This document shows positions 8,749-53,209 of a stretch of DNA of 64,000 nt, one piece after another. The stretch spans positions 21,721-85,720 of the forward strand of contig JACRNJ010000032.1 of assembly GCA_016219285.1 (NCBI GenBank), written 5' to 3'. The notes under the pieces are model-generated. The model searched no databases. It was given only the letters and a program-made list of their open reading frames with translations, and was not told where the DNA came from. Positions within the stretch are counted from its first letter, which is position 1; the number at the start of each line of letters is the position of its first letter. The position numbers and the translations under genes are program-made. This stretch comes from Deltaproteobacteria bacterium (lineage in GTDB: Bacteria; Desulfobacterota; GWC2-55-46; UBA9637).

Positions 8749-8836
8749 ACCCCACCCTCACCTTAATCCTCTCCCTGAGGGAGAGGAGACTTTTTTGTTC
8801 CCTCCCATTCAAGGGGAGGGTTAGGGTGGGGATGGG
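8749..8836. repeat. about 88 bp structured palindromic element (copy A), inverted partner at 9879-9963
   Basis: accccaccctcacc...ctccctgagggagagg...ccctcccattcaaggggaggg...gggtggggatggg. The ends are self-complementary and there are two internal mini-hairpins. Confidence 0.8.
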
Positions 8837-9878: not shown

Positions 9879-9963
9879 CCCATCCCCACCTTTGTCCTCC
9901 CCTTGAAGGGGAGGAAACTATTTTCCTCTCCCTCAGGGAGAGGATGAAGGTGAGGGTGGGGTT
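9879..9963. repeat. about 88 bp structured palindromic element (copy B, reverse complement of copy A)
   Basis: cccatccccacc...ccccttgaaggggagg...ctccctcagggagagg...ggtgagggtggggtt. This is the reverse complement of 8749-8836, so the pair brackets the CCG gene in inverted orientation. Confidence 0.8.
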
Positions 9964-32101: not shown

Positions 32102-32723
32102 GTAGGTTGGGTTGAGCAAAGCGAAACCCAACAATTCATTCATACCCTACATCCTCATCAAATTGAATCTCACAACCTGCCCCCCAATCGCTCTTGTAAA
32201 TGCCCTGTTTAACATAACGATGAAAACTTGAATATGCCCAGTCGCGTGGCAATGTTACCAGACTATGTTTAACAGGATTGTAATGGATGTAATTACAATG
32301 CGCCTCAAAATCTTTCTCGTCTCTAATCTGATGCTCCCAAAACCGCCTCTGCCAAACCGCTTGTTCTCCCTTACTTAATTTTGAGGCAGATCTAAAGCCT
32401 TTATATCCATCCTGACATTGTCTGCTAAAATAGCTTTTTATAAGCCCCCATCGCAGAGAAAAATCATTATCGTTGTGCGGCAATGTCCAGATACAGTGAA
32501 TATGATCGGGCAGCAAAACAAATGCGTCAATCCGAAAGGTGTGTCTGTTGATAACATACTGAAACGCTTCTTTTATCAACCGTATGTTTGCTTCATGGCA
32601 TAAAATCCTTTTCCTCCCGTGCGTTACCACCGTAAAGAAAAATGCCGCCCCTTTTGCCTTTGACCTGCGATAACGCATTGCTTTTTATGATTATGTTGGG
32701 TTTCGTTCCTCAACCCAACCTAC
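32102..32723. mobile_element. RAYT (REP-associated tyrosine transposase) unit bounded by hairpin inverted repeats
   Basis: Left end is gtaggttgggttgagcaaagcgaaacccaaca. Right end is tgttgggtttcgttcctcaacccaacctac, its inverse, and each end is an 8-bp-stem hairpin. The unit encloses one transposase gene. Confidence 0.8.
32136..32678 (-). CDS. REP-associated tyrosine transposase (IS200/IS605 TnpA-like, Y1 HUH family)
   Basis: HuH motif LPDHIHCIW and catalytic Tyr region NYIHYNPVKH. Length 180 aa, which is longer than IS200 TnpA and typical of RAYTs. Confidence 0.8.
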   Translation of the reverse strand: MRYRRSKAKGAAFFFTVVTHGRKRILCHEANIRLIKEAFQYVINRHTFRIDAFVLLPDHIHCIWTLPHNDNDFSLRWGLIKSYFSRQCQDGYKGFRSASKLSKGEQAVWQRRFWEHQIRDEKDFEAHCNYIHYNPVKHSLVTLPRDWAYSSFHRYVKQGIYKSDWGAGCEIQFDEDVGYE

Positions 32724-33119: not shown

Positions 33120-33577
33120 TTTAACCCCCTTTCTTTAATTTATTATCATTCTCCAAGGTAAACAAATATGTCTGTATTATAATATCAACACAAAAGTTTT
33201 GCTATATTATTAAAGCGCCCCAAAAATAGATATTGATTTTTTGAGAAACCTGCAAGTCCTTGACAGACGTTTCACCTGTCAAGGGCAAGTTGGCTGTTAG
33301 ACAACACACCCCTAAATCCCCTCTCGAGAGGGGACTAAAGGGGCGTGTTATTTACAACGAGCCCTCCCCCTTTATCCCCCTCATGGAGGGGGACAGGGGG
33401 AGGATACGGTGAGGAGCAAAGATGTGCCGATAACGAAGTATGGCAGGCAAATCGCAGGTTTGTAAAATAGCGAGGTTTTTAATCGCTATTTTACGGAAGT
33501 GCTTAATGGTGTCTGACGTGTTCATAGGCGAATAATTCGCTTTTTTATTTGGGAACAGTCTCCTTGGAAGTCTTTTC

Positions 33578-37943: not shown

Positions 37944-38007
37944 AATAAAATCAGGACAGGCATTTTTCTTCTGTATTGCAAAAGTGGGAAACGCCACAGG
38001 CGCATTA
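37944..38007. repeat. direct repeat DR-left bracketing a toxin-antitoxin islet
   Basis: aatcaggacaggcatttttcttctgtattgcaa...gccacagg. A 35 bp near-identical core is repeated at 39497-39530. Confidence 0.8.
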
Positions 38008-38071
38008 TCTTTCAGAACAAAATGTAAGAGATTGCAATTGTGAAGGGGAAAGGGTAAAATGGAGAAAATCA

Positions 38072-38266
38072 ATGAAAGTGCGTGATATTATAAAGCTGAT
38101 AGAGGCTGATGGATGGTATAGAGTGGACACAAAGGGCAGTCATAGGCAATACAAACATGCATGGAAAACTGGCAGGGTTACTATTGCTGGACATCCGAAC
38201 TACGATTTAGCCCCTGGCACTCTGAACAGCATCTTAAAACAATCTAAGTTAAAGGAGGTAAAGTAG
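38072..38266 (+). CDS. hicA: HicA-family toxin
   Basis: MKVRDIIKLIEADGWYRVDTKGSHRQYKH...GRVTIAGHPNYDLAPGTLNSILKQ is the canonical HicA motif. A GGAG ribosome-binding site lies upstream. Confidence 0.75.
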   Translation: MKVRDIIKLIEADGWYRVDTKGSHRQYKHAWKTGRVTIAGHPNYDLAPGTLNSILKQSKLKEVK

Positions 38267-38479
38267 ATGCATCGTTTTCTTATTGTAATTGAAAAAGCCG
38301 AGGGTAACTACTCGGCATATTCTCCAGATTTGCCGGGTTGCATTGCAACAGGCGCAAGCAGGGAAGAAACGGAACGCAACATGCATGAAGCAATTGAAAT
38401 GCATGTGCGCGGTTTGATAGAGGATAATCTGCCTGTCCCTGTGTCAACATCTTTTGCTGAATATGTGGCAGTTCCCTGA
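38267..38479 (+). CDS. hicB: HicB-family antitoxin
   Basis: FLIVIEKAEGNYSAYSPDLPGCIATGASREETERNMHEAIEMHV is a HicB/UPF0150 fold. Confidence 0.7.
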   Translation: MHRFLIVIEKAEGNYSAYSPDLPGCIATGASREETERNMHEAIEMHVRGLIEDNLPVPVSTSFAEYVAVP

Positions 38480-38506
38480 ACCGGACTTGTATGAAACCAC
38501 GGTAAG

Positions 38507-38707
38507 TTGTCCCTCGCTGCTCAAATCCTCGCCGCCAAAAAGCAACACACCCCTCAATCCCCTCTTGATAGAGGGGAATTACCCAACGCCGATACCTCCG
38601 CCTTTGAGCGTCAGATTGATGAAATGGTTTATAAACTCTACGACCTCACACCGGAGGAGATTGCAATTGTGGAGGGGTTGGATATTGATGTTGACAAATT
38701 ACAATAA
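38507..38707 (+). pseudogene. C-terminal tail remnant of a DNA methyltransferase/restriction-modification type gene
   Basis: ERQIDEMVYKLYDLTPEEIAIVEG is the conserved C-terminal helix of many N6-adenine methyltransferase and type IIG restriction-modification proteins. Only about 66 aa are present. Confidence 0.35.
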
Positions 38708-38778
38708 GCCTATTGATACAACAGTCTGTTTCTGTTATGATAGTCTTAATTCTGGTCAACCAGAAAGGAGGTTAAAAA

Positions 38779-39039
38779 ATGAAAACATTGTCGCTCTCTG
38801 AGGCAAAGATGAAACTAAGCAGCCTTGTGGATTCGGTATATAAAACTGACGAGGAGGTCATCATTACAAAAAACGGCTCACCTGCTGCAGTCCTGATAAG
38901 CCCTGATGAATTTGAAGGATGGAAGGAGACTATTGCCATACGTTCTGATGCTGCCTTTATGGAGGAAATAAAGAAGGGGTTGGCATCCCTGAAAAAAGGC
39001 AGGGCAAAGTTCTATACACTCGAGGAGCTGTTCAGATAG
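38779..39039 (+). CDS. Phd/YefM-family antitoxin
   Basis: MKTLSLSEAKMKLSSLVD...EEVIITKNGSPAAVLISPDEFE is the Phd/YefM signature. Confidence 0.8.
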   Translation: MKTLSLSEAKMKLSSLVDSVYKTDEEVIITKNGSPAAVLISPDEFEGWKETIAIRSDAAFMEEIKKGLASLKKGRAKFYTLEELFR

Positions 39040-39330
39040 ATGAGCATTCTCAGGCTGAAAATGTCTGATGAGATGGCGGACTTAATCCGCTCCCTTCACC
39101 CTGATATAAAACGAAAGATTAAGGCCGCATTACAAACTGTTTTAAGTGACCCCCTGTCAGGCAAGGCATTAAAAGATGAACTTGAGGGACTGCAAAGTTT
39201 TAAAGTGGGGAAGTTCAGGGTGATTTATAAAACAACAAAAGACAAAGGAGTTATTGAAGTTGTAACCATTGGACCTCGAAAAACTATATATGAAGAAACT
39301 TTGAGGCTTTTAAAAAGGGGAAAATTATAA
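39040..39330 (+). CDS. relE: RelE/ParE-family toxin
   Basis: 96 aa. The 1-nt junction with the antitoxin and the pattern ...KVGKFRVIYKTTKDKGVIEVVTIGPRK is the RelE/ParE fold. Confidence 0.75.
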   Translation: MSILRLKMSDEMADLIRSLHPDIKRKIKAALQTVLSDPLSGKALKDELEGLQSFKVGKFRVIYKTTKDKGVIEVVTIGPRKTIYEETLRLLKRGKL

Positions 39331-39672: not shown

Positions 39673-40119
39673 ATGAGGTTATCTACCAAAGGGCAATATG
39701 CAGTAAGGGCGATGGTCAGCCTTGTTTGCCATGAAAATGGAGGGCCTATTACACTGAAAGATATATCTGAGAGCGAGGGTATATCACTGGCTTATCTTGA
39801 GCAGCTGTTTGTTAAGCTCAGGAAGGGCAATATTGTAAAGAGTGTAAGGGGGCCTGGCGGCGGATATGTGTTGGCGAGGCCGGCAAGCGAGATAAAAGTT
39901 GGAGAGGTTATAACCGTGGTAGAAGAGTCTTTAAACCCGGTTGCATGTCTTGATGGTGACATTTCCATGTGCACAAGGACAAATAAGTGCGTAACCCAAC
40001 GTGTTTGGAAAGGGCTGGGCGATAAGATGAAGGAGTTCTTGGATTCAATAACAATAGAAGATTTAAGCCGAGAGGCAAATGAGTTAAAGAGTGCTGGAGT
40101 TAAGGAGTTTAGGAGTTAA
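39673..40119 (+). CDS. iscR: Rrf2-family Fe-S cluster regulator IscR
   Basis: Rrf2 helix-turn-helix (LSTKGQYAVRAMVSL) and three Cys ligands (C...C....C) at IscR spacing. Sits upstream of iscS-iscU. Confidence 0.85.
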   Translation: MRLSTKGQYAVRAMVSLVCHENGGPITLKDISESEGISLAYLEQLFVKLRKGNIVKSVRGPGGGYVLARPASEIKVGEVITVVEESLNPVACLDGDISMCTRTNKCVTQRVWKGLGDKMKEFLDSITIEDLSREANELKSAGVKEFRS

Positions 40120-40164
40120 CTCCTAAACTCCTTAACTCTCAACTTAAAAAATAAGGAGGTTGTT

Positions 40165-41376
40165 TTGAAGAGAATATACCTTGATAACAATGCAACAACA
40201 CCAATCCACCCTGAGGTTTTTGATGCGATGCTTCCATATCTGAAACATGAATTTGGAAATCCATCCAGCATCCATTGGGCAGGGAGGAATCCCAGAAGGG
40301 TTGTTGATGATGCGAGAGAGAAAGTGACGAAGCTTCTCAATTGTGATGCAAATGAAATCATTTTCACAAGCTGCGGGTCAGAAAGTAACAATCTTGCTAT
40401 AAAGGGAGTTGCCGAATCAAAAAAAGATAAAGGCAACCATATTATTACTACTAAAGTGGAGCATCCAGCCGTTTTGAGTACTTGCAAATACCTTGCAAAA
40501 AACGGTTTTGATGTAACCTTTCTTGATGTTGATAATCATGGCATGCTGGATTTAGACCAGCTTAAAAAGGCAATAACTCCAAAGACAATACTTATTACGA
40601 TAATGTTTTCAAATAATGAGACGGGAGTGATATTTCCCATAGAGGAGATAGGCAAGATTGCAAAAGAGCATAATATTCCTTTCCATACCGATGCTGTTCA
40701 GGGTGTGGGAAAGGTTCCTATAGATGTAAAGAAAATGAATGTAGACCTGTTGACGCTTTCAGGCCATAAGCTCTATGCGCCAAAGGGGATTGGCGCACTC
40801 TATGTCAAAAGAGGTGTAAGGTTGGTGCCATTAATTCATGGCGGTCATCAGGAGCGGAACAGAAGGGGCGGCACAGAAAATGTCGCCGGTATTGTTGCAC
40901 TTGGAAAGGCGTGCGAGATTGCCGCCAGAGACATGGAGCAAGAGATAAAACATATTACAGCTTTAAGAGACAGACTTGAAAAAGGACTGATGCAAAGGGT
41001 AACGCATGTGCGGCTTAATGGCCATCCAATAGAGAGGATTCCTAACACGGTAAACCTAAGTTTTGAATTTGCAGAGGGAGAGTCGCTGCTTTTAAACCTT
41101 GATATGAAGGGGATAGCTGCATCGTCTGGTTCGGCATGCACATCCGGAACATTGGAGCCGTCCCATGTGCTTGTGGCTATGGGTGTTCCGATGGAGGCAT
41201 CTCACAGTTCTGTGCGATTTAGCCTTGGGCGTGGGAATACGATAGAGGATATTGACTATGTTATAGATGTCTTGCCGGCAATGGTGGAAAGGATGAGGAG
41301 CATGTCGCCGCTTTATTCTACGATTACCGGAAAAGGTGAGAATATAACGTTCAGTGAAAGCAATTGCAGCCATTAA
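40165..41376 (+). CDS. iscS: cysteine desulfurase IscS/NifS
   Basis: PLP Lys motif SGHKLYAPKGIGALYV and active-site Cys loop SSGSACTSG. Length 403 aa. Confidence 0.9.
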   Translation: MKRIYLDNNATTPIHPEVFDAMLPYLKHEFGNPSSIHWAGRNPRRVVDDAREKVTKLLNCDANEIIFTSCGSESNNLAIKGVAESKKDKGNHIITTKVEHPAVLSTCKYLAKNGFDVTFLDVDNHGMLDLDQLKKAITPKTILITIMFSNNETGVIFPIEEIGKIAKEHNIPFHTDAVQGVGKVPIDVKKMNVDLLTLSGHKLYAPKGIGALYVKRGVRLVPLIHGGHQERNRRGGTENVAGIVALGKACEIAARDMEQEIKHITALRDRLEKGLMQRVTHVRLNGHPIERIPNTVNLSFEFAEGESLLLNLDMKGIAASSGSACTSGTLEPSHVLVAMGVPMEASHSSVRFSLGRGNTIEDIDYVIDVLPAMVERMRSMSPLYSTITGKGENITFSESNCSH

Positions 41377-49399: not shown

Positions 49400-49463
49400 G
49401 TAGGGTGGGCTATGCCCACCTTTTTGATTGTGCCGCAATTTTGGTGGGCATAGCCCACCCTAC
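49400..49463. repeat. REPIN-like palindromic doublet, copy 3 of 3, interrupting a small ORF
   Basis: gtagggtgggctatgcccacctttttgattgtgccgcaattttggtgggcatagcccaccctac. The minus-strand ORF 49375-49566 reads through it and is then frameshifted. Confidence 0.85.
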
Positions 49464-49583
49464 TACCTTTTCCATGCACCTTGTTTAAGCGATTCAAATT
49501 CTTTATTCCATGCCCTGTTGCAATAATTTCAATCTCCAGAATTTCCCCTTTTATCTTAAAAGGCATATCTCATTTAACCATTT

Positions 49584-49928
49584 TTATGAATTTTTGCATA
49601 GGTATAACAAAGAGCTCAAAAGCGGAAGATTAGCGCCGCCCTTGCCGCCTGCCGCAAAAAATCCCAAATCCTTTTCTATCCCCTTTATCCCCTCCTTTAC
49701 AGCGCCGCAGACCGTTGTAGTAACACCACTGCTGTGCCAGTCAAAACCCAATGCACAGCCAAAGGCCTGAAACCAGTGGGGGTCTGACAATCGTTTTAAA
49801 GTCTCTTCTGGCCCAAACTCCTGTATGATGATTATAATAATCTCCCTCGCAAGCCTCGTCATCCTCTCAAAAAGCCAGCGAGGGGCTTTGCCGCCATGAA
49901 GCGGCAGGTGAGCAATACCAGTTTTCAT
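49584..49928 (-). pseudogene. N-terminal fragment of a DUF763-like protein (truncated)
   Basis: KTGIAHLPLHGGKAPRWLFERMTRLAREI...GPEETLKRLSDPHWFQAFGCALGFDWHSSGVTT matches, from memory, the conserved DUF763 N-terminus. Only 114 aa remain of a family that is usually about 400 aa. Confidence 0.4.
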
Positions 49929-49978: not shown

Positions 49979-52900
49979 ATGCTAAAAAACCCATTACATA
50001 TGCAAGAAAATACAGCCTTGCTTCATGTAAAAGGTTTAGGCTTTTCTGAAGAGGCAAAGACGCTCCAGAACCTAAGGCTTTTAAATGAAACACCTTTTAA
50101 AGAACATATTGAAGAGCTGATAAATCTTATTCTAACCGCACCCTCTCCTGATGATGCCATGAATAATATGGAGAGAGTAGTTTCACAGCTTTACGTAAAA
50201 AGCATAAATGCATTTATAGCTGATAGAGAAAAACTTAAAAATCTCGTCATTATATGCGGCTCATCTAATCTTTTATCAAATACTATTGTAACCAATCTTA
50301 TCTATGCAGAGCAGCTTTTTTTAGAACAAGGCCTTTATAAGAAAAAGGATATAACACTTTTTCTCAAAGAATTAGAAATGGAGGCTCAAAACCTCTCCAA
50401 TCTTAACTCTGCTGCCACGGCGCTTCGTCTTTACAAACAAAAGGAGTATCTGAGGATAGGGACAAGAGATATTCTTGGACTGGCGTCCATGCAAGAAACA
50501 ACATTGGAACTGTCCGACCTTGCAAGCGCATGCCTTGAGATTGCATACAGATTTTGCCTCAAACAACTCAAGGCAGAATACGGGACGCCTCTCTACAAAG
50601 ATATTGACGACAAAGATGTGGAATCAGAATTTGCAGTCATAGGAATGGGAAAGCTGGGCGGCAGGGAGTTAAACTTTAACTCAGATATTGATATTATCTA
50701 TATATATTCCTCTGACAAGGGGGAAACATCCGGAATAGAAAATCCTCCCTCACCCCCCTTTACTAAAGGGGGGATGGGGGGATTTAATAACAAAATATCA
50801 CTCCATGCCTTTTATGTAAAACTCTCAGAGATGATAACAAAAATCATAGGTAATGTGACAGAGGATGGAATTGTATTCAGGGTTGATTTGAATCTCAGGC
50901 CTGAGGGAAAGGGCGGCGACCTTGCCAACTCTATCAGAAGCGCAGAGATTTATTACGAATCATGGGGGCAGGCATGGGAGCGGGCAGCTATGATAAAGGC
51001 AAGGGTTGTTGCAGGAAGCTTAAAACTCGGAGAGGCATTTTTAAGTATGATTGAGCCCTTTGTCTACCGCAGATATCTTGACTTTACGGCTATTGAAGAG
51101 ATACGGGGCATGAAGGAAAAGATTGACGTAAGCCTGCTGCGGGCAGCCCCCGATGCAGTTGATGTCAAATTAGGGGTTGGAGGAATACGAGAGATAGAAT
51201 TCTTTGTTCAGGCTATTCAACTTATAAACGGAGGAAAGGATAAGGCTATCAGGGAGAAGAACAGCCTCCGTGCTATAGAGTTACTAAAACAAAAGGGATA
51301 CATTAATGAACAAGATGCATCTGCAATAAGCAATGCATATATATTTTTAAGAAATTTAGAGCACAGGATTCAGATTGTGGAAGGGAGGCAGACACAGGTA
51401 ATTCCATCAAAGGCAGGGGAGATAGAAAGGCTTGCCAGAATGCTTGGATTTGAAGATACCGCTTCGCCCACTCCACTTGAAGCAGGGGGAAAGATAAGCG
51501 CGGCGGAACAATTCCGGGACGAATATAAAAAACAGACCAACATTGTGCATGAGATATACAACACGCTTTTTTTCAAGGCTTCAAAGGATCTGGATGAAAA
51601 AATATCAAAATATGTGATCCTTATCCTTGGCGAAAGTTTAGATAAGCAGGAAGTGGTCTCAAGATTATCTCAATCCGGCTTCCATGAGCCGGAAGCTGCC
51701 TATGAAAACCTTAAGCTCTTAAAAGACGGGCCTCCCTTTGCACACTTTCCTGTCAGGACAAAGATGCTTTTAAAAAAGATAGCCCCGTTTCTCCTGACCT
51801 GCATTATGGAGTCCCCTGCCCCGGACATGGCACTTAATCACCTTGAACGATTTCTTTCCGCCATCGGCGCAAGAACCACCTTCTATTCGCTCCTTGCAGA
51901 AAACAGGAAGGTAATGGAGCTGCTCGTCAAATTATTTGGCACAAGCATATTTTTGTCAATGGCAATCATTGAGCATCCTGAAAATATTGATACCCTTCTC
52001 TCGCCTGAATTAAACAAGCCATTCAAGAATAAACAAGAGCTTCTGCAAGAACTTTCAGCAATGCTTGATGCGGCTGCAGACCATGAAGAACATCTGGATT
52101 GTATAAGGAGGTTCAGAAATGGCGAGATATTAAGGATAGGGATACATGACATATTTGAAGAACTAAAACCGGCAGAGGTCTCGAGGCAGATTACCTGTCT
52201 CGCAGACGTTTGTCTGATCAAGGCATATGAGATTTCATTGCTGGAGTTGAAAAAAAGATTCGGCACTCCCGGACAAGACGATGGTGAAAATGCTCAGTTT
52301 GCCGTCCTTGCCCTTGGCAAGATGGGCAGCGAGGAACTCATCTACAGCTCGGACCTTGATATAATCTTTATCTATTCAAAAGGCGGAGAAACTTCAGGGC
52401 CGAAGGTCATATCAAATCACGAGTTTTTTGCAAAGTTGTCGCAGCGCATTATATCAACCCTGTCAATCATTACCAGGGAAGGGGTTGCCTTTAAAATTGA
52501 TGCGCGGCTCAGGCCATCCGGCAGCTCAGGCCCCCTTGTCATATCCGAGGATACCTTTATAAAATACCATAAGGAAACCGCTCATATGTGGGAAAAGCAG
52601 GCCATGCTCAAGGCAAAATTTGCTGCAGGGGACGATAAGTTCGGGGCTAAGGTGTTAGATGAAATACAAAAACATATATACGCAGCAGCGCCAAATCATG
52701 AGGATTTGAAAGAACTTTATCGGATTAGGAAACGGATGGAGGCGGAGATTGCTAAAGAAGATTTTGGAAAGTATAATATCAAATTTGGAAAGGGAGGGCT
52801 TGTAGATGTGGAGTTTGCTGTTCAGGTTCTTCAGTTAAAGTTCGGCAGGCAAAAACTATCTATAAGAAAACCAAACACTGCTGATGCAATACATGCATTA

Positions 52901-53209
52901 AAAGATATTGACATAATCTCAAAAACGGATTATGAGATTCTCATAAATGCTTATAATTTCTACAGACTGCTGGAAAACCGCTTGAGGATTGTGCAAAACA
53001 GGGCAGAAGGCGAGATTGTAAAGGATTCCAGAGAACTTCTTATCCTTGCGAAAAGGCTTGGTTACAAAGGTGAGGGTGCCGGCGCAAAACTTCTTGAAGA
53101 TTATCTGAGCCATGCAGCCAAGGTAAGGAATTTATACGAGAGGGTAATGAATTTTTTGGTGAACTGTGATTTTACACCTCATAGCAGAATCGGATGGAGT
53201 GCGCAATAA
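49979..53209 (+). CDS. glnE: bifunctional glutamine synthetase adenylyltransferase/deadenylyltransferase
   Basis: Two nucleotidyltransferase cores (GKLGGRELNFNSDIDIIYIYS and GKMGSEELIYSSDLDIIFIYS). Length 1076 aa. A palindrome-encoded insert lies at 50747-50784. Confidence 0.9.
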   Translation: MLKNPLHMQENTALLHVKGLGFSEEAKTLQNLRLLNETPFKEHIEELINLILTAPSPDDAMNNMERVVSQLYVKSINAFIADREKLKNLVIICGSSNLLSNTIVTNLIYAEQLFLEQGLYKKKDITLFLKELEMEAQNLSNLNSAATALRLYKQKEYLRIGTRDILGLASMQETTLELSDLASACLEIAYRFCLKQLKAEYGTPLYKDIDDKDVESEFAVIGMGKLGGRELNFNSDIDIIYIYSSDKGETSGIENPPSPPFTKGGMGGFNNKISLHAFYVKLSEMITKIIGNVTEDGIVFRVDLNLRPEGKGGDLANSIRSAEIYYESWGQAWERAAMIKARVVAGSLKLGEAFLSMIEPFVYRRYLDFTAIEEIRGMKEKIDVSLLRAAPDAVDVKLGVGGIREIEFFVQAIQLINGGKDKAIREKNSLRAIELLKQKGYINEQDASAISNAYIFLRNLEHRIQIVEGRQTQVIPSKAGEIERLARMLGFEDTASPTPLEAGGKISAAEQFRDEYKKQTNIVHEIYNTLFFKASKDLDEKISKYVILILGESLDKQEVVSRLSQSGFHEPEAAYENLKLLKDGPPFAHFPVRTKMLLKKIAPFLLTCIMESPAPDMALNHLERFLSAIGARTTFYSLLAENRKVMELLVKLFGTSIFLSMAIIEHPENIDTLLSPELNKPFKNKQELLQELSAMLDAAADHEEHLDCIRRFRNGEILRIGIHDIFEELKPAEVSRQITCLADVCLIKAYEISLLELKKRFGTPGQDDGENAQFAVLALGKMGSEELIYSSDLDIIFIYSKGGETSGPKVISNHEFFAKLSQRIISTLSIITREGVAFKIDARLRPSGSSGPLVISEDTFIKYHKETAHMWEKQAMLKAKFAAGDDKFGAKVLDEIQKHIYAAAPNHEDLKELYRIRKRMEAEIAKEDFGKYNIKFGKGGLVDVEFAVQVLQLKFGRQKLSIRKPNTADAIHALKDIDIISKTDYEILINAYNFYRLLENRLRIVQNRAEGEIVKDSRELLILAKRLGYKGEGAGAKLLEDYLSHAAKVRNLYERVMNFLVNCDFTPHSRIGWSAQ

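Follow-up and report, generated by a model that had tools for sequence, protein, structure and literature searches.

A 64,000-nucleotide stretch of a Deltaproteobacteria bacterium contig (JACRNJ010000032.1), here called the window, carries an intact glnE gene whose reading frame contains a 46-nt nested palindrome at positions 50740-50785. We interpret this glnE hairpin as a passenger copy of a small dispersed nested-palindrome repeat that is tolerated in a permissive loop of GlnE, a reading to which we give a probability of about 0.78. It draws on the structure of the element, on its patchy presence in GlnE relatives and on the recurrence of the same sequence in unrelated genes and genomes.

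A nested palindrome in the glnE reading frame

The element has the form AAATCCTCCC-tca-CCCCCCTTT-act-AAAGGGGGG-at-GGGGGGATTT and is read as NPPSPPFTKGGMGGF in the glnE frame. The host gene, the parts of the element and the segment that differs between alleles are as follows.

49979..53209, + strand: glnE (glutamine synthetase adenylyltransferase/adenylyl-removing enzyme), an intact open reading frame (ORF) of 1076 codons
50735..50791, + strand: indel segment of 57 nt (19 codons), IENPPSPPFTKGGMGGFNN, missing in 'empty-site' alleles (TTG-K-ISLH) in codon alignments
50740..50749, + strand: outer left arm AAATCCTCCC, with one C>T change from the family consensus AAATCCCCCC; pairs with 50776-50785 in the minimum free energy fold
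50750..50752, + strand: left spacer TCA, an internal loop, with the same spacer in the copy at locus L152
50753..50773, + strand: inner hairpin CCCCCCTTT-act-AAAGGGGGG, perfect, of 10 bp when the loop is counted as 1 nt
50774..50775, + strand: right spacer AT, identical in L152
50776..50785, + strand: outer right arm GGGGGGATTT, paired in the minimum free energy fold and matching the family consensus

An earlier note on this DNA had quoted the sequence at 50747-50784 as a hairpin translated within glnE. The quoted letters are exact and form the core of the 46-nt palindrome, and the hairpin itself is a perfect palindrome at 50753-50773, with a 10-bp stem and a 1-nt loop, nested in the outer arms. 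The translation GIENPPSPPFTKGGMGGFNNK is as the note gave it, and the host is GlnE by Pfam, with two matches each to PF03710 (GlnE) and PF08335 (GlnD_UR_UTase). The position given for the element, directly after the motif DIDIIYIYS, needs correction, since the element begins 9 residues past that motif. The ORF product is a 100% match to the comparison sequence P0001 and to the metagenome-assembled genome (MAG) protein MBI5327676.1, whose public annotation starts at codon 8 of the ORF.

A 56-nt stretch around the element folds into a single two-tier hairpin of -31.5 kcal/mol as RNA (z -3.3, with 0/200 shuffles as good) and -17.3 kcal/mol as DNA (z -4.0). Perfect hairpins with a stem of 9 bp or more number eight in the 64-kb window as a whole, and five of these have C-run/G-run arms, compared with 2.2 and 0.0 respectively in composition-preserving shuffles. 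The stability of the fold and this excess over shuffles show that the glnE hairpin is real and not a product of chance.

The C6/G6 runs and T3/A3 steps of the sequence make it stop-free in two of three frames on either strand, where it encodes Pro-Pro...Lys-Gly-Gly peptides, and the element would be tolerated because it is free of stops and supplies residues suited to flexible loops (Pro-Pro-Phe/Leu ... Lys-Gly-Gly). The insert region, if translated, yields the peptides GETSGIENPPSPPFTK and GGMGGFNNK. A non-coding origin fits the codon usage of the host, in that elsewhere in glnE both CCC (24% of Pro codons) and GGG (23% of Gly codons) are in the minority.

An AlphaFold2 model of the window GlnE, made with 89 homologues, has a mean predicted local distance difference test (pLDDT) score of 90.9. 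The insert is placed between strand 237-243 and helix 275-291 and shows no regular secondary structure; the residue blocks 251-260 and 261-270 score 76 and 58, against values above 85 elsewhere, the only other soft internal spot being residues 491-510 (pLDDT 77), which coincide with the remnant called site C below. The insert is thus predicted to be a low-confidence surface loop just past the catalytic DIDII strand, and the element is in frame and stop-free within that disordered loop. Separately, the last 14 residues of the protein (1063-1076; window 53165-53206; ..NCDFTPHSRIGWSAQ) occur in no relative and have a pLDDT below 50; this tail may derive from a shifted or lost stop codon.

The glnE segment in GlnE relatives

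GlnE was compared across 120 homologues, about 100 of them distant (at most 60% identity) and the others forming a close clade at 55-86% identity. The distant orthologues have a uniform loop of ~13 residues, TTGV-EGRxxxSR-ISLH. The earlier note had stated that E. coli GlnE has no such segment and had named the presence of the segment in distant GlnE proteins as the observation that would turn the insertion into an ancestral linker. In the alignment with the N-terminal domain structure of E. coli GlnE (PDB 1v4a), the E. coli chain has gaps of 13 + 4 residues exactly at the element, and the segment occurs in 0 of the ~100 orthologues at or below 60% identity, so that the insertion survives that test.

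In the close clade the same loop is hypervariable. The segment is found only in the window, L009, L001/P0014 and L004/P0018, the other members being empty or carrying unrelated repeats. The states of the loop (site B) in relatives, with amino acid identity to the window GlnE, are listed here.

L009, 74%: hairpin equal in length and frame to that of the window, CCCCCCTTT-cat-AAAGGGGGG
L001, 70%: hairpin equal in length and frame to that of the window, CCTCCCTTT-atg-AAAGGGGGG
L004, 68%: different yet perfect 10-bp stem, CCCCCTCTTT-ggc-AAAGAGGGGG
L005, 74%: (CAGAAGT)n heptamers in the loop
L006, 57%: (CAGGGGT)x4 in the loop
L002, 82%, the closest relative of the window: decayed G-rich heptamer array and no hairpin
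L007, 73%: unrelated small palindromes in the loop
L003 and L328, 71% and 74%: empty loop, ACA GGC AAA ATA

Only a 'K' is present at the insert position in P0009, P0010, P0013 and P0015. L009 (filled) and P0010/L328 (empty), at 86% amino acid identity, differ by a clean 57-nt indel, and within the subclade L009/P0010/P0009/P0013/P0015 the segment is in L009 only. The states of the loop do not follow the neighbour-joining tree of the rest of GlnE and therefore indicate repeated insertion, replacement, deletion and/or allelic recombination. On the evidence of these alignments, the 57-nt segment is an insertion. The 'empty' alleles, which are shorter than any distant loop, are plausibly secondary deletions between bracketing GGN-A repeats.

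Such deletions would also be expected if the segment were an ancestral linker of the GlnE clade, palindromic by chance and lost by the relatives, and it is in keeping with this that four lineages (68-75% identity) have a hairpin at the same codon, three of identical length. Yet no distant orthologue examined has the segment, its distribution on the GlnE tree is non-monophyletic, L009 being alone in its subclade, and the same sequence, arms and spacers included, is present in unrelated genes and intergenic DNA of many organisms. We consider this explanation very improbable, and the family copies elsewhere largely refute it.

Several matches to the repeat lie at contig ends, and G/C homopolymers are error-prone, so that an artefact of assembly or sequencing at the homopolymer runs has to be weighed. 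The independent NCBI, ENA, Logan and JGI assemblies, however, give in-frame orthologous copies at the same codon, and the frame stays intact over 1076 codons; contigs that end at repeats are what a real dispersed repeat would produce. An artefact is the least probable of the explanations considered here.

The sequence P0011 is chimeric, with an N-terminal third identical to the P0014 cluster and a remainder that resembles P0007/P0012. Either the assembly joined two sequences or co-occurring populations have recombined naturally, and the protein bears on how the patchy alleles are read. A frameshift at the element as the cause of the split glnE of the P0014 cluster was rejected: the split is at residue 828, and P0011 is chimeric.

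Further sites in GlnE have similar inserts. At site A (~residue 138) a full element, CAAATCCCCCC-tca-CCCCCCTTT-gga-AAAGGGGGG-actaa-GGGGGGATTT, read as IPPHPPLEKGGLRGD, is present in L003, L009 and P0019, and the site is empty in the window. The corresponding loop in the second nucleotidyltransferase domain, site D, has inserts in P0023 and P0025. Site C lies within the window gene itself.

51461..51493 (residues 495-505), + strand: site C, a decayed second element in an inter-domain linker, ASPTPLEAGGK, recognised from the alignment of relatives

Its nucleotides, GCT TCG CCC ACT CCA CTT GAA GCA GGG GGA AAG, have largely lost the palindrome. Most relatives are without ~9 residues at this site; the copy in L002 is more decayed, and better-kept copies are found in P0017 (PSPLIPLPPEKGD) and P0023 (PSPYPLPSGER; a 12-bp stem in L006 at 1760-1786). 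In the close relatives, in-frame C-run/G-run hairpins were also seen in cmk (L002 914-940) and prpD/MmgE (L008 16145-16171 and 17381-17405). These include TTCCCTCTCCCC-ctt-GGGGAGAGGGGA, and the PrpD Pfam match is split into two stretches.

A dispersed repeat family

JGI metagenome contigs and IMG/VR viral contigs were scanned with the inner stem only, as the pattern CCCCCCTTT-N1-5-AAAGGGGGG. Matching stretches numbered at least 120 in the metagenome contigs and at least 120 in the viral contigs; abundance is thus a lower bound and the taxonomic range a sketch, and the counts and ranges that follow are among the matches listed. Contigs with copies span GC contents of 0.31-0.70. The family consensus is AAATCCCCCC-n2-4-CCCCCCTTT-nnn-AAAGGGGGG-n2-4-GGGGGGATTT, ~44-46 nt in length, and 35 full copies align to nAAATCCCCCCCnnCCCCCCTTTAnnAAAGGGGGGnnnGGGGGGATTTn. 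The glnE element conforms to it, having an inner stem with a 3-nt loop and outer arms set off by 2-4 unpaired nucleotides.

The outer arms AAATCCCCCC and GGGGGGATTT lie outside the search pattern. Both were nevertheless present in 40/128 metagenome matches with readable flanks, one in 74/128 and neither in 14/128, and pooling the flanks gives the profile AAAT-C6. Of 132 metagenome copies, 115 have a 3-nt loop. The copy in a GH57 gene (L152) is identical to that in glnE apart from the loop, a single arm base and the first AAAT base, and the two share both non-pairing spacers, TCA and AT. Named hosts fall in at least two phyla, comprising the lineage of the window ('Deltaproteobacteria bacterium GWC2_42...' and 'uncultured Thermodesulfobacteriota') and Burkholderiales. 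These comparisons show that the glnE hairpin is a copy of a sequence-conserved dispersed family.

Similar sequences could in principle have arisen in place, by slippage or template switching on C/G runs, and resemble one another as convergent GC-rich, terminator-like hairpins that never moved. Quasi-palindrome correction is an established mutational mechanism, and some of the matches are half-elements beside genes that could be plain terminators, as in a SuMu-like prophage of Pasteurellaceae. Such a local origin does not predict the conserved outer arms, which lie outside the search pattern, the fixed 3-nt loop or the near-identity of copies in different genes down to their non-pairing spacers, and we hold it to be very unlikely.

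The half-element CCCCCCTTT-gaa-AAAGGGGGG-cta-GGGGGGATTTT was observed in L211, L215, L230 and L244 (IMG/VR, isolate-derived). In the SuMu-like Mu prophage it adjoins terminase/portal genes, beside the uptake-signal-like ACAAGCGGT, and may act simply as a terminator. A plasmid search with an isolate-derived match found nothing. No strict copy outside the close lineage was present among the matches listed in 1.57 Mb of GlnE loci, which are mostly distant. A scan of a genome collection with the single GlnE protein found nothing, its peptide patterns being too query-specific.

Copies inside other genes

Copies were called as in-ORF when they lay in a stop-free frame of at least 150 residues with at least 20 residues on each side, in contigs of GC content up to 0.50. 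By this definition 15/46 metagenome and 10/29 viral copies among the matches listed are in ORFs, against 66% of random positions, and the family is about two-fold depleted from genes yet far from excluded. The description of the palindrome as of intergenic type in the earlier note holds in this sense, as about two-thirds of the low-GC copies listed lie outside long ORFs, and the related hairpins of the window are intergenic. In all 15 of the 15 metagenome in-ORF copies listed, the frame is one that gives PPF.KGG or PPL.KGG, and the third frame is used in 0/15.

Hosts recognised by Pfam in low-GC contigs are a GT4 glycosyltransferase, CarA, a MetH-like protein, HisF, a GH57 branching enzyme, RsmE, a radical-SAM protein, TatD, IspD and AroC; those in high-GC contigs are MurB, QueA, a CysJ-like flavoprotein and an E2 acyltransferase. 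The element is positioned in inter-domain linkers of CarA, MetH, GH57, MurB, CysJ and E2, and it interrupts a domain in HisF, TatD, IspD, AroC and RsmE, where the Pfam match is longer or split.

The MurB loop of the Burkholderiales lineage is a second hotspot. In a series of sequences at 75-100% identity, the loop between YRxVxLK and EEWF is empty, holds a single hairpin (EIPPNPPLAKGGVRGDL), a tandem double (EIPPNPPLAKGG-EIPPNPPLTKGGVRGDL, with the DNA in L119) or an acidic insert, or is heptamer-derived. The MurB loop of L330 consists of (NCAGAAG)x4 followed by (CATCCTT)x4, an inverted pair of heptamer arrays, and in AroC (L199) the hairpin directly adjoins the heptamer-derived SQESEVRSQE. 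Hairpins and heptanucleotide arrays thus have sites in common in at least three genes.

Proposed mechanism and the case for function in place

In the mechanism that we propose, a copy of the repeat would have landed in, or recombined into, a surface loop of the N-terminal nucleotidyltransferase domain, between the strand with the catalytic DxD and the next helix. Ribosomes would read through the element, and GlnE would gain a flexible Pro/Gly-rich loop of 15-19 residues. The DNA would be a passenger, selfish or neutral, and no adaptation of GlnE, with selection merely filtering the sites at which copies survive (loops, inter-domain linkers and open frames). The loop would be a recurrent hotspot, occupied by turns by copies of the hairpin, by tandem arrays of heptanucleotides and by deletions. 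The segment is probably translated and roughly neutral, and we infer that the family is, or was, mobile. More speculatively, a spread based on single-strand hairpins, or by template switching or conversion, would fit the lack of duplications.

Several observations weigh against a neutral passenger. No transposase, target-site rule or donor copy was identified, and a search for target-site duplications gave no consistent one, the longest word common to both flanks averaging 3.4 nt in the 36 full copies listed and 2.95 +/- 0.24 nt when flanks were mismatched as a control. In glnE orthologues that agree at only 40-48% of 4-fold sites gene-wide, the inner stem has stayed perfect or nearly so, an observation that neutral decay alone explains less well than selection on the nucleotides, conversion or re-insertion. 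Without some conserved machinery or function it is difficult to see how the family has kept its sequence over GC contents of 0.31-0.70 and in at least two phyla. The coding status of copies in the census, moreover, rests on long open frames and not on gene calls.

At locus L136 (927-1003, MetH-like), a 9-nt direct repeat CAGATGAAG brackets the element and DEE is duplicated; this is the sole clear duplication candidate among the 36 copies.

Stem conservation of this kind raises the alternative that the hairpin has been co-opted in situ, the RNA hairpin and the PP motifs tuning glnE translation, transcription or mRNA decay, or the DNA serving as a protein site. The hairpin is very stable (about -31 kcal/mol as RNA), 11/12 Pro/Gly codons of the inner stem in the window, L009 and L001 keep the pattern CCC CCC TTT ... 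AAA GGG GGG (rough p ~0.03), L004 has at this position a 10-bp stem of another sequence that is likewise perfect, and related intergenic hairpins are terminator-like. Many close relatives, however, are without the hairpin or have unrelated inserts, including the closest, L002, and the outer left arm decays differently in each lineage. Identical elements occur in many unrelated genes with no common regulation. The glnE hairpin, with its tail ATTTAATAAC, has no U-tract and was not flagged by the terminator scan, and an intrinsic terminator was rejected on these grounds. The synonymous-stem signal is weak and is explained equally by recent re-insertion or allelic recombination; P0011 looks chimeric. 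We regard a function in place as unlikely, although less so than the other alternatives.

Implications

A wider proposal, which we put forward tentatively and consider doubtful, is that there is a cross-phylum family of ~46-nt 'coding-compatible' nested palindromes that, together with heptamer arrays, have repeatedly invaded and vacated the same loops (GlnE, MurB and others); the conserved sequence over GC contents of 0.31-0.70, the recurrence at the same sites and the lack of target duplications would then imply conserved insertion or conversion machinery acting on hairpin DNA or RNA. If this is true, they would rank with the smallest known mobile elements and would be a general means by which bacterial proteins acquire new loops. 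Until now, in-frame 'selfish' palindromes in essential genes have been regarded as peculiar to Rickettsia, apart from scattered cases of MITEs in other organisms, and here a much smaller element would be doing likewise in free-living groundwater bacteria, a Burkholderiales lineage and phage-like contigs. The family consensus is tight enough for searching, and the hotspots offer a natural series of filled, empty and replaced alleles, making it testable how tiny repeats move, why they keep company with heptanucleotide arrays and what share of loop variation in uncultured bacteria is repeat-derived. The reading also carries a warning that PPxPPFxKGG-type segments in MAG proteins would be repeat insertions and not lineage-specific functional motifs.

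Other repeats in the window

The earlier note had described the elements at 8749-8836, 33305-33410 and 38553-38580 as being of the same style as the glnE hairpin. They exist and have the nested C-run/G-run design, but their stem sequences differ (TCCCCTCT/AGAGGGGA types). These loci and the glnE element have an AATCC(Y)n start in common, and together they are best called a looser superfamily.

8749..8836, unstranded: compound nested C-run/G-run hairpins, intergenic; inner hairpin 8767-8787 followed by TTTTTT
9880..9962, unstranded: hairpin pair 9895-9915 and 9924-9944 within outer arms, intergenic
33305..33410, unstranded: nested hairpin pair, intergenic; ACACACCCCT-AAATCCCCTCTC adjoining GAGAGGGGA.., and TCCCCCTC-atg-GAGGGGGA
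38553..38580, + strand: hairpin AATCCCCTCT-tgat-AGAGGGGAATT, read in frame as HTPQSPLDRGELP

Runs of T follow the hairpins at 8767 and 9895, which lie downstream of + strand genes and were scored as terminator-like. The hairpin at 38553-38580 is within what is left of the C-terminus of an N-6 DNA methylase, a remnant of 66 codons (38507-38707); by tblastn, 51 of its residues align to 40 of a Microcystis plasmid 'N-6 DNA methylase', so that ~11 are extra, and a PDB search with the remnant found nothing. The remnant has a HicA/HicB pair (37976-38479) on one side and a Phd/ParE pair (38779-39330) on the other, and window 37976-39330 is a small island of toxin-antitoxin modules and gene debris.

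A perfect 42-nt palindrome at 40097-40138 has 21-nt arms composed of the heptamers GAGTTAA GGAGTTT AGGAGTT and their inverse. The palindrome runs from the end of ORF 39673-40119 into the gap that precedes ORF 40165-41376 (cysteine desulfurase-like by sequence) and is of the same inverted heptamer-array structure type as the MurB loop of L330. Upstream of glnE, a GTAG-tagged, REPIN-like inverted doublet GGTAGGGTGGGCTATGCCCACC ... GGTGGGCATAGCCCACCCTAC is present (window 49400-49468 and 49584-49928). In this region a DUF763 gene is reduced to 114 codons (profile positions 1-97/319); the gene has 357-368 codons in the relatives L001, L002 and L007.

Comparison with known repeats

The glnE family was compared with the described classes of small bacterial and organellar repeats. 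No Rfam match at gathering score was found in the whole window, and hairpin matches at 50740-50785 were at chance level (E >=0.27). A full-text literature search by motif words returned unrelated papers only, and the family is apparently undescribed. BRE (~90 bp), considered because the MurB hosts are Burkholderiales, was set aside, as no motif word was present in the sequence supplements of PMC3110155.

REP/REPIN sequences are likewise short, GC-rich imperfect palindromes of high copy number (PMC3733652, PMC3116915, PMC2817692), and mobilisation through single-stranded hairpins would fit the lack of target-site duplications in the glnE family. This class was rejected, as GTAG, CGTC, CTAC and GACG are all missing from the 46 nt; the extragenic location of REPs does not match either, since the glnE copy and about one-third of the low-GC copies listed lie inside ORFs. 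There is a gene for a RAYT-like Y1 transposase in the window (ORF 32136-32678, minus strand; Pfam Y1_Tnp, E 1e-7) with GTAG-tagged hairpins on both sides, GTAGGTTGGGTT-gagcaaagcga-AACCCAAC at 32103-32132 and GTTGGGTT-tcgttcctc-AACCCAACCTAC at 32695-32723. The stretch 32103-32723 is a classical REP/RAYT arrangement, distinct from the C6/G6 family, and because these flanks are different hairpins (GTAG-GTTGGGTT...AACCCAAC), the glnE element is not the cognate REP of this RAYT. In L002 (6150-7152), a Y1_Tnp gene of 281 residues lies 2 kb upstream of glnE, and the 19-nt inverted repeat on its two sides, GGGTCAGGTCTTGAAATAT, is perfect and again unrelated to the C6/G6 hairpins. A RAYT homologue was encoded in only one locus among the pattern-scan matches listed (L088 onward).

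MITEs (ERIC, Coxiella QMITE, Correia) are non-autonomous inverted repeats that can fuse in frame to ORFs (PMC10969869, PMC5896051), and in this they resemble the glnE element. A typical MITE, however, exceeds 100 bp, ends in terminal inverted repeats and has both target-site duplications and a parent IS, and the 46-nt glnE element was excluded from the class on size and on the lack of consistent target-site duplication.

Four-unit heptanucleotide elements have been described within and between genes, as GGACCGG x4 in Geobacter metallireducens (PMC2700814) and as GGGNATC x4 arrays in Xanthomonas/Nostoc (PMC4692102). Such elements are tandem direct repeats, in contrast to the palindrome in glnE, and here they are companions at the same hotspots ((CAGGGGT)4 and (CAGAAGT)n in glnE; (CAGAAGG)4...(CATCCTT)4 in MurB). 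The GC-rich palindromic clusters and double-hairpin elements of fungal, sponge and algal mitochondria are also GC-rich hairpins in AT-richer genomes, with two-hairpin layouts and sometimes inside coding regions (PMC2800124, PMC4524435), but they are organellar, unrelated in sequence and mostly intergenic.

In the glnE family, the inner hairpin is 21 nt long within a whole unit of 46 nt, MurB has a tandem/nested double, and heptamers occupy the same or adjoining sites in AroC and glnE. In architecture and setting these features come closest to the cyanobacterial SDR of Elhai et al. 2008, which are reportedly hairpins of 21-27 nt in heptamer arrays, essentially confined to a cyanobacterial subgroup. 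Compared by description, the two share a very small size, heptanucleotide-array sites, nested or tandem copies and the lack of an encoded protein; the present elements differ in being two-tier and ~46 nt long, in their non-cyanobacterial lineages and in their many in-frame copies. The double-hairpin elements (DHEs) of Allomyces belong to the mitochondrial sort mentioned above.

The nearest parallel in behaviour is with in-frame palindromes of Rickettsia, for which NCBIfam includes an RPE1 domain model; the glnE insert peptide has no Pfam or NCBIfam match at E<=10. The Rickettsia palindromic elements (RPE) are ~100-150 bp long and form ten families, found in Rickettsia only (Ogata et al. 2000/2002, as summarised in PMC10969869 and PMC3184786). 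Like the glnE element, they are palindromes dispersed between genes and in frame within unrelated housekeeping genes, with a large intragenic fraction, and their inserts are translated as an extra peptide at positions compatible with the fold. The glnE element differs in its 46-nt length, its C6/G6 runs and its occurrence in contigs of 0.31-0.70 GC from at least two phyla. We rate the glnE family as belonging to a known class, in-frame palindromic selfish DNA, and as differing from it in size, sequence and range.

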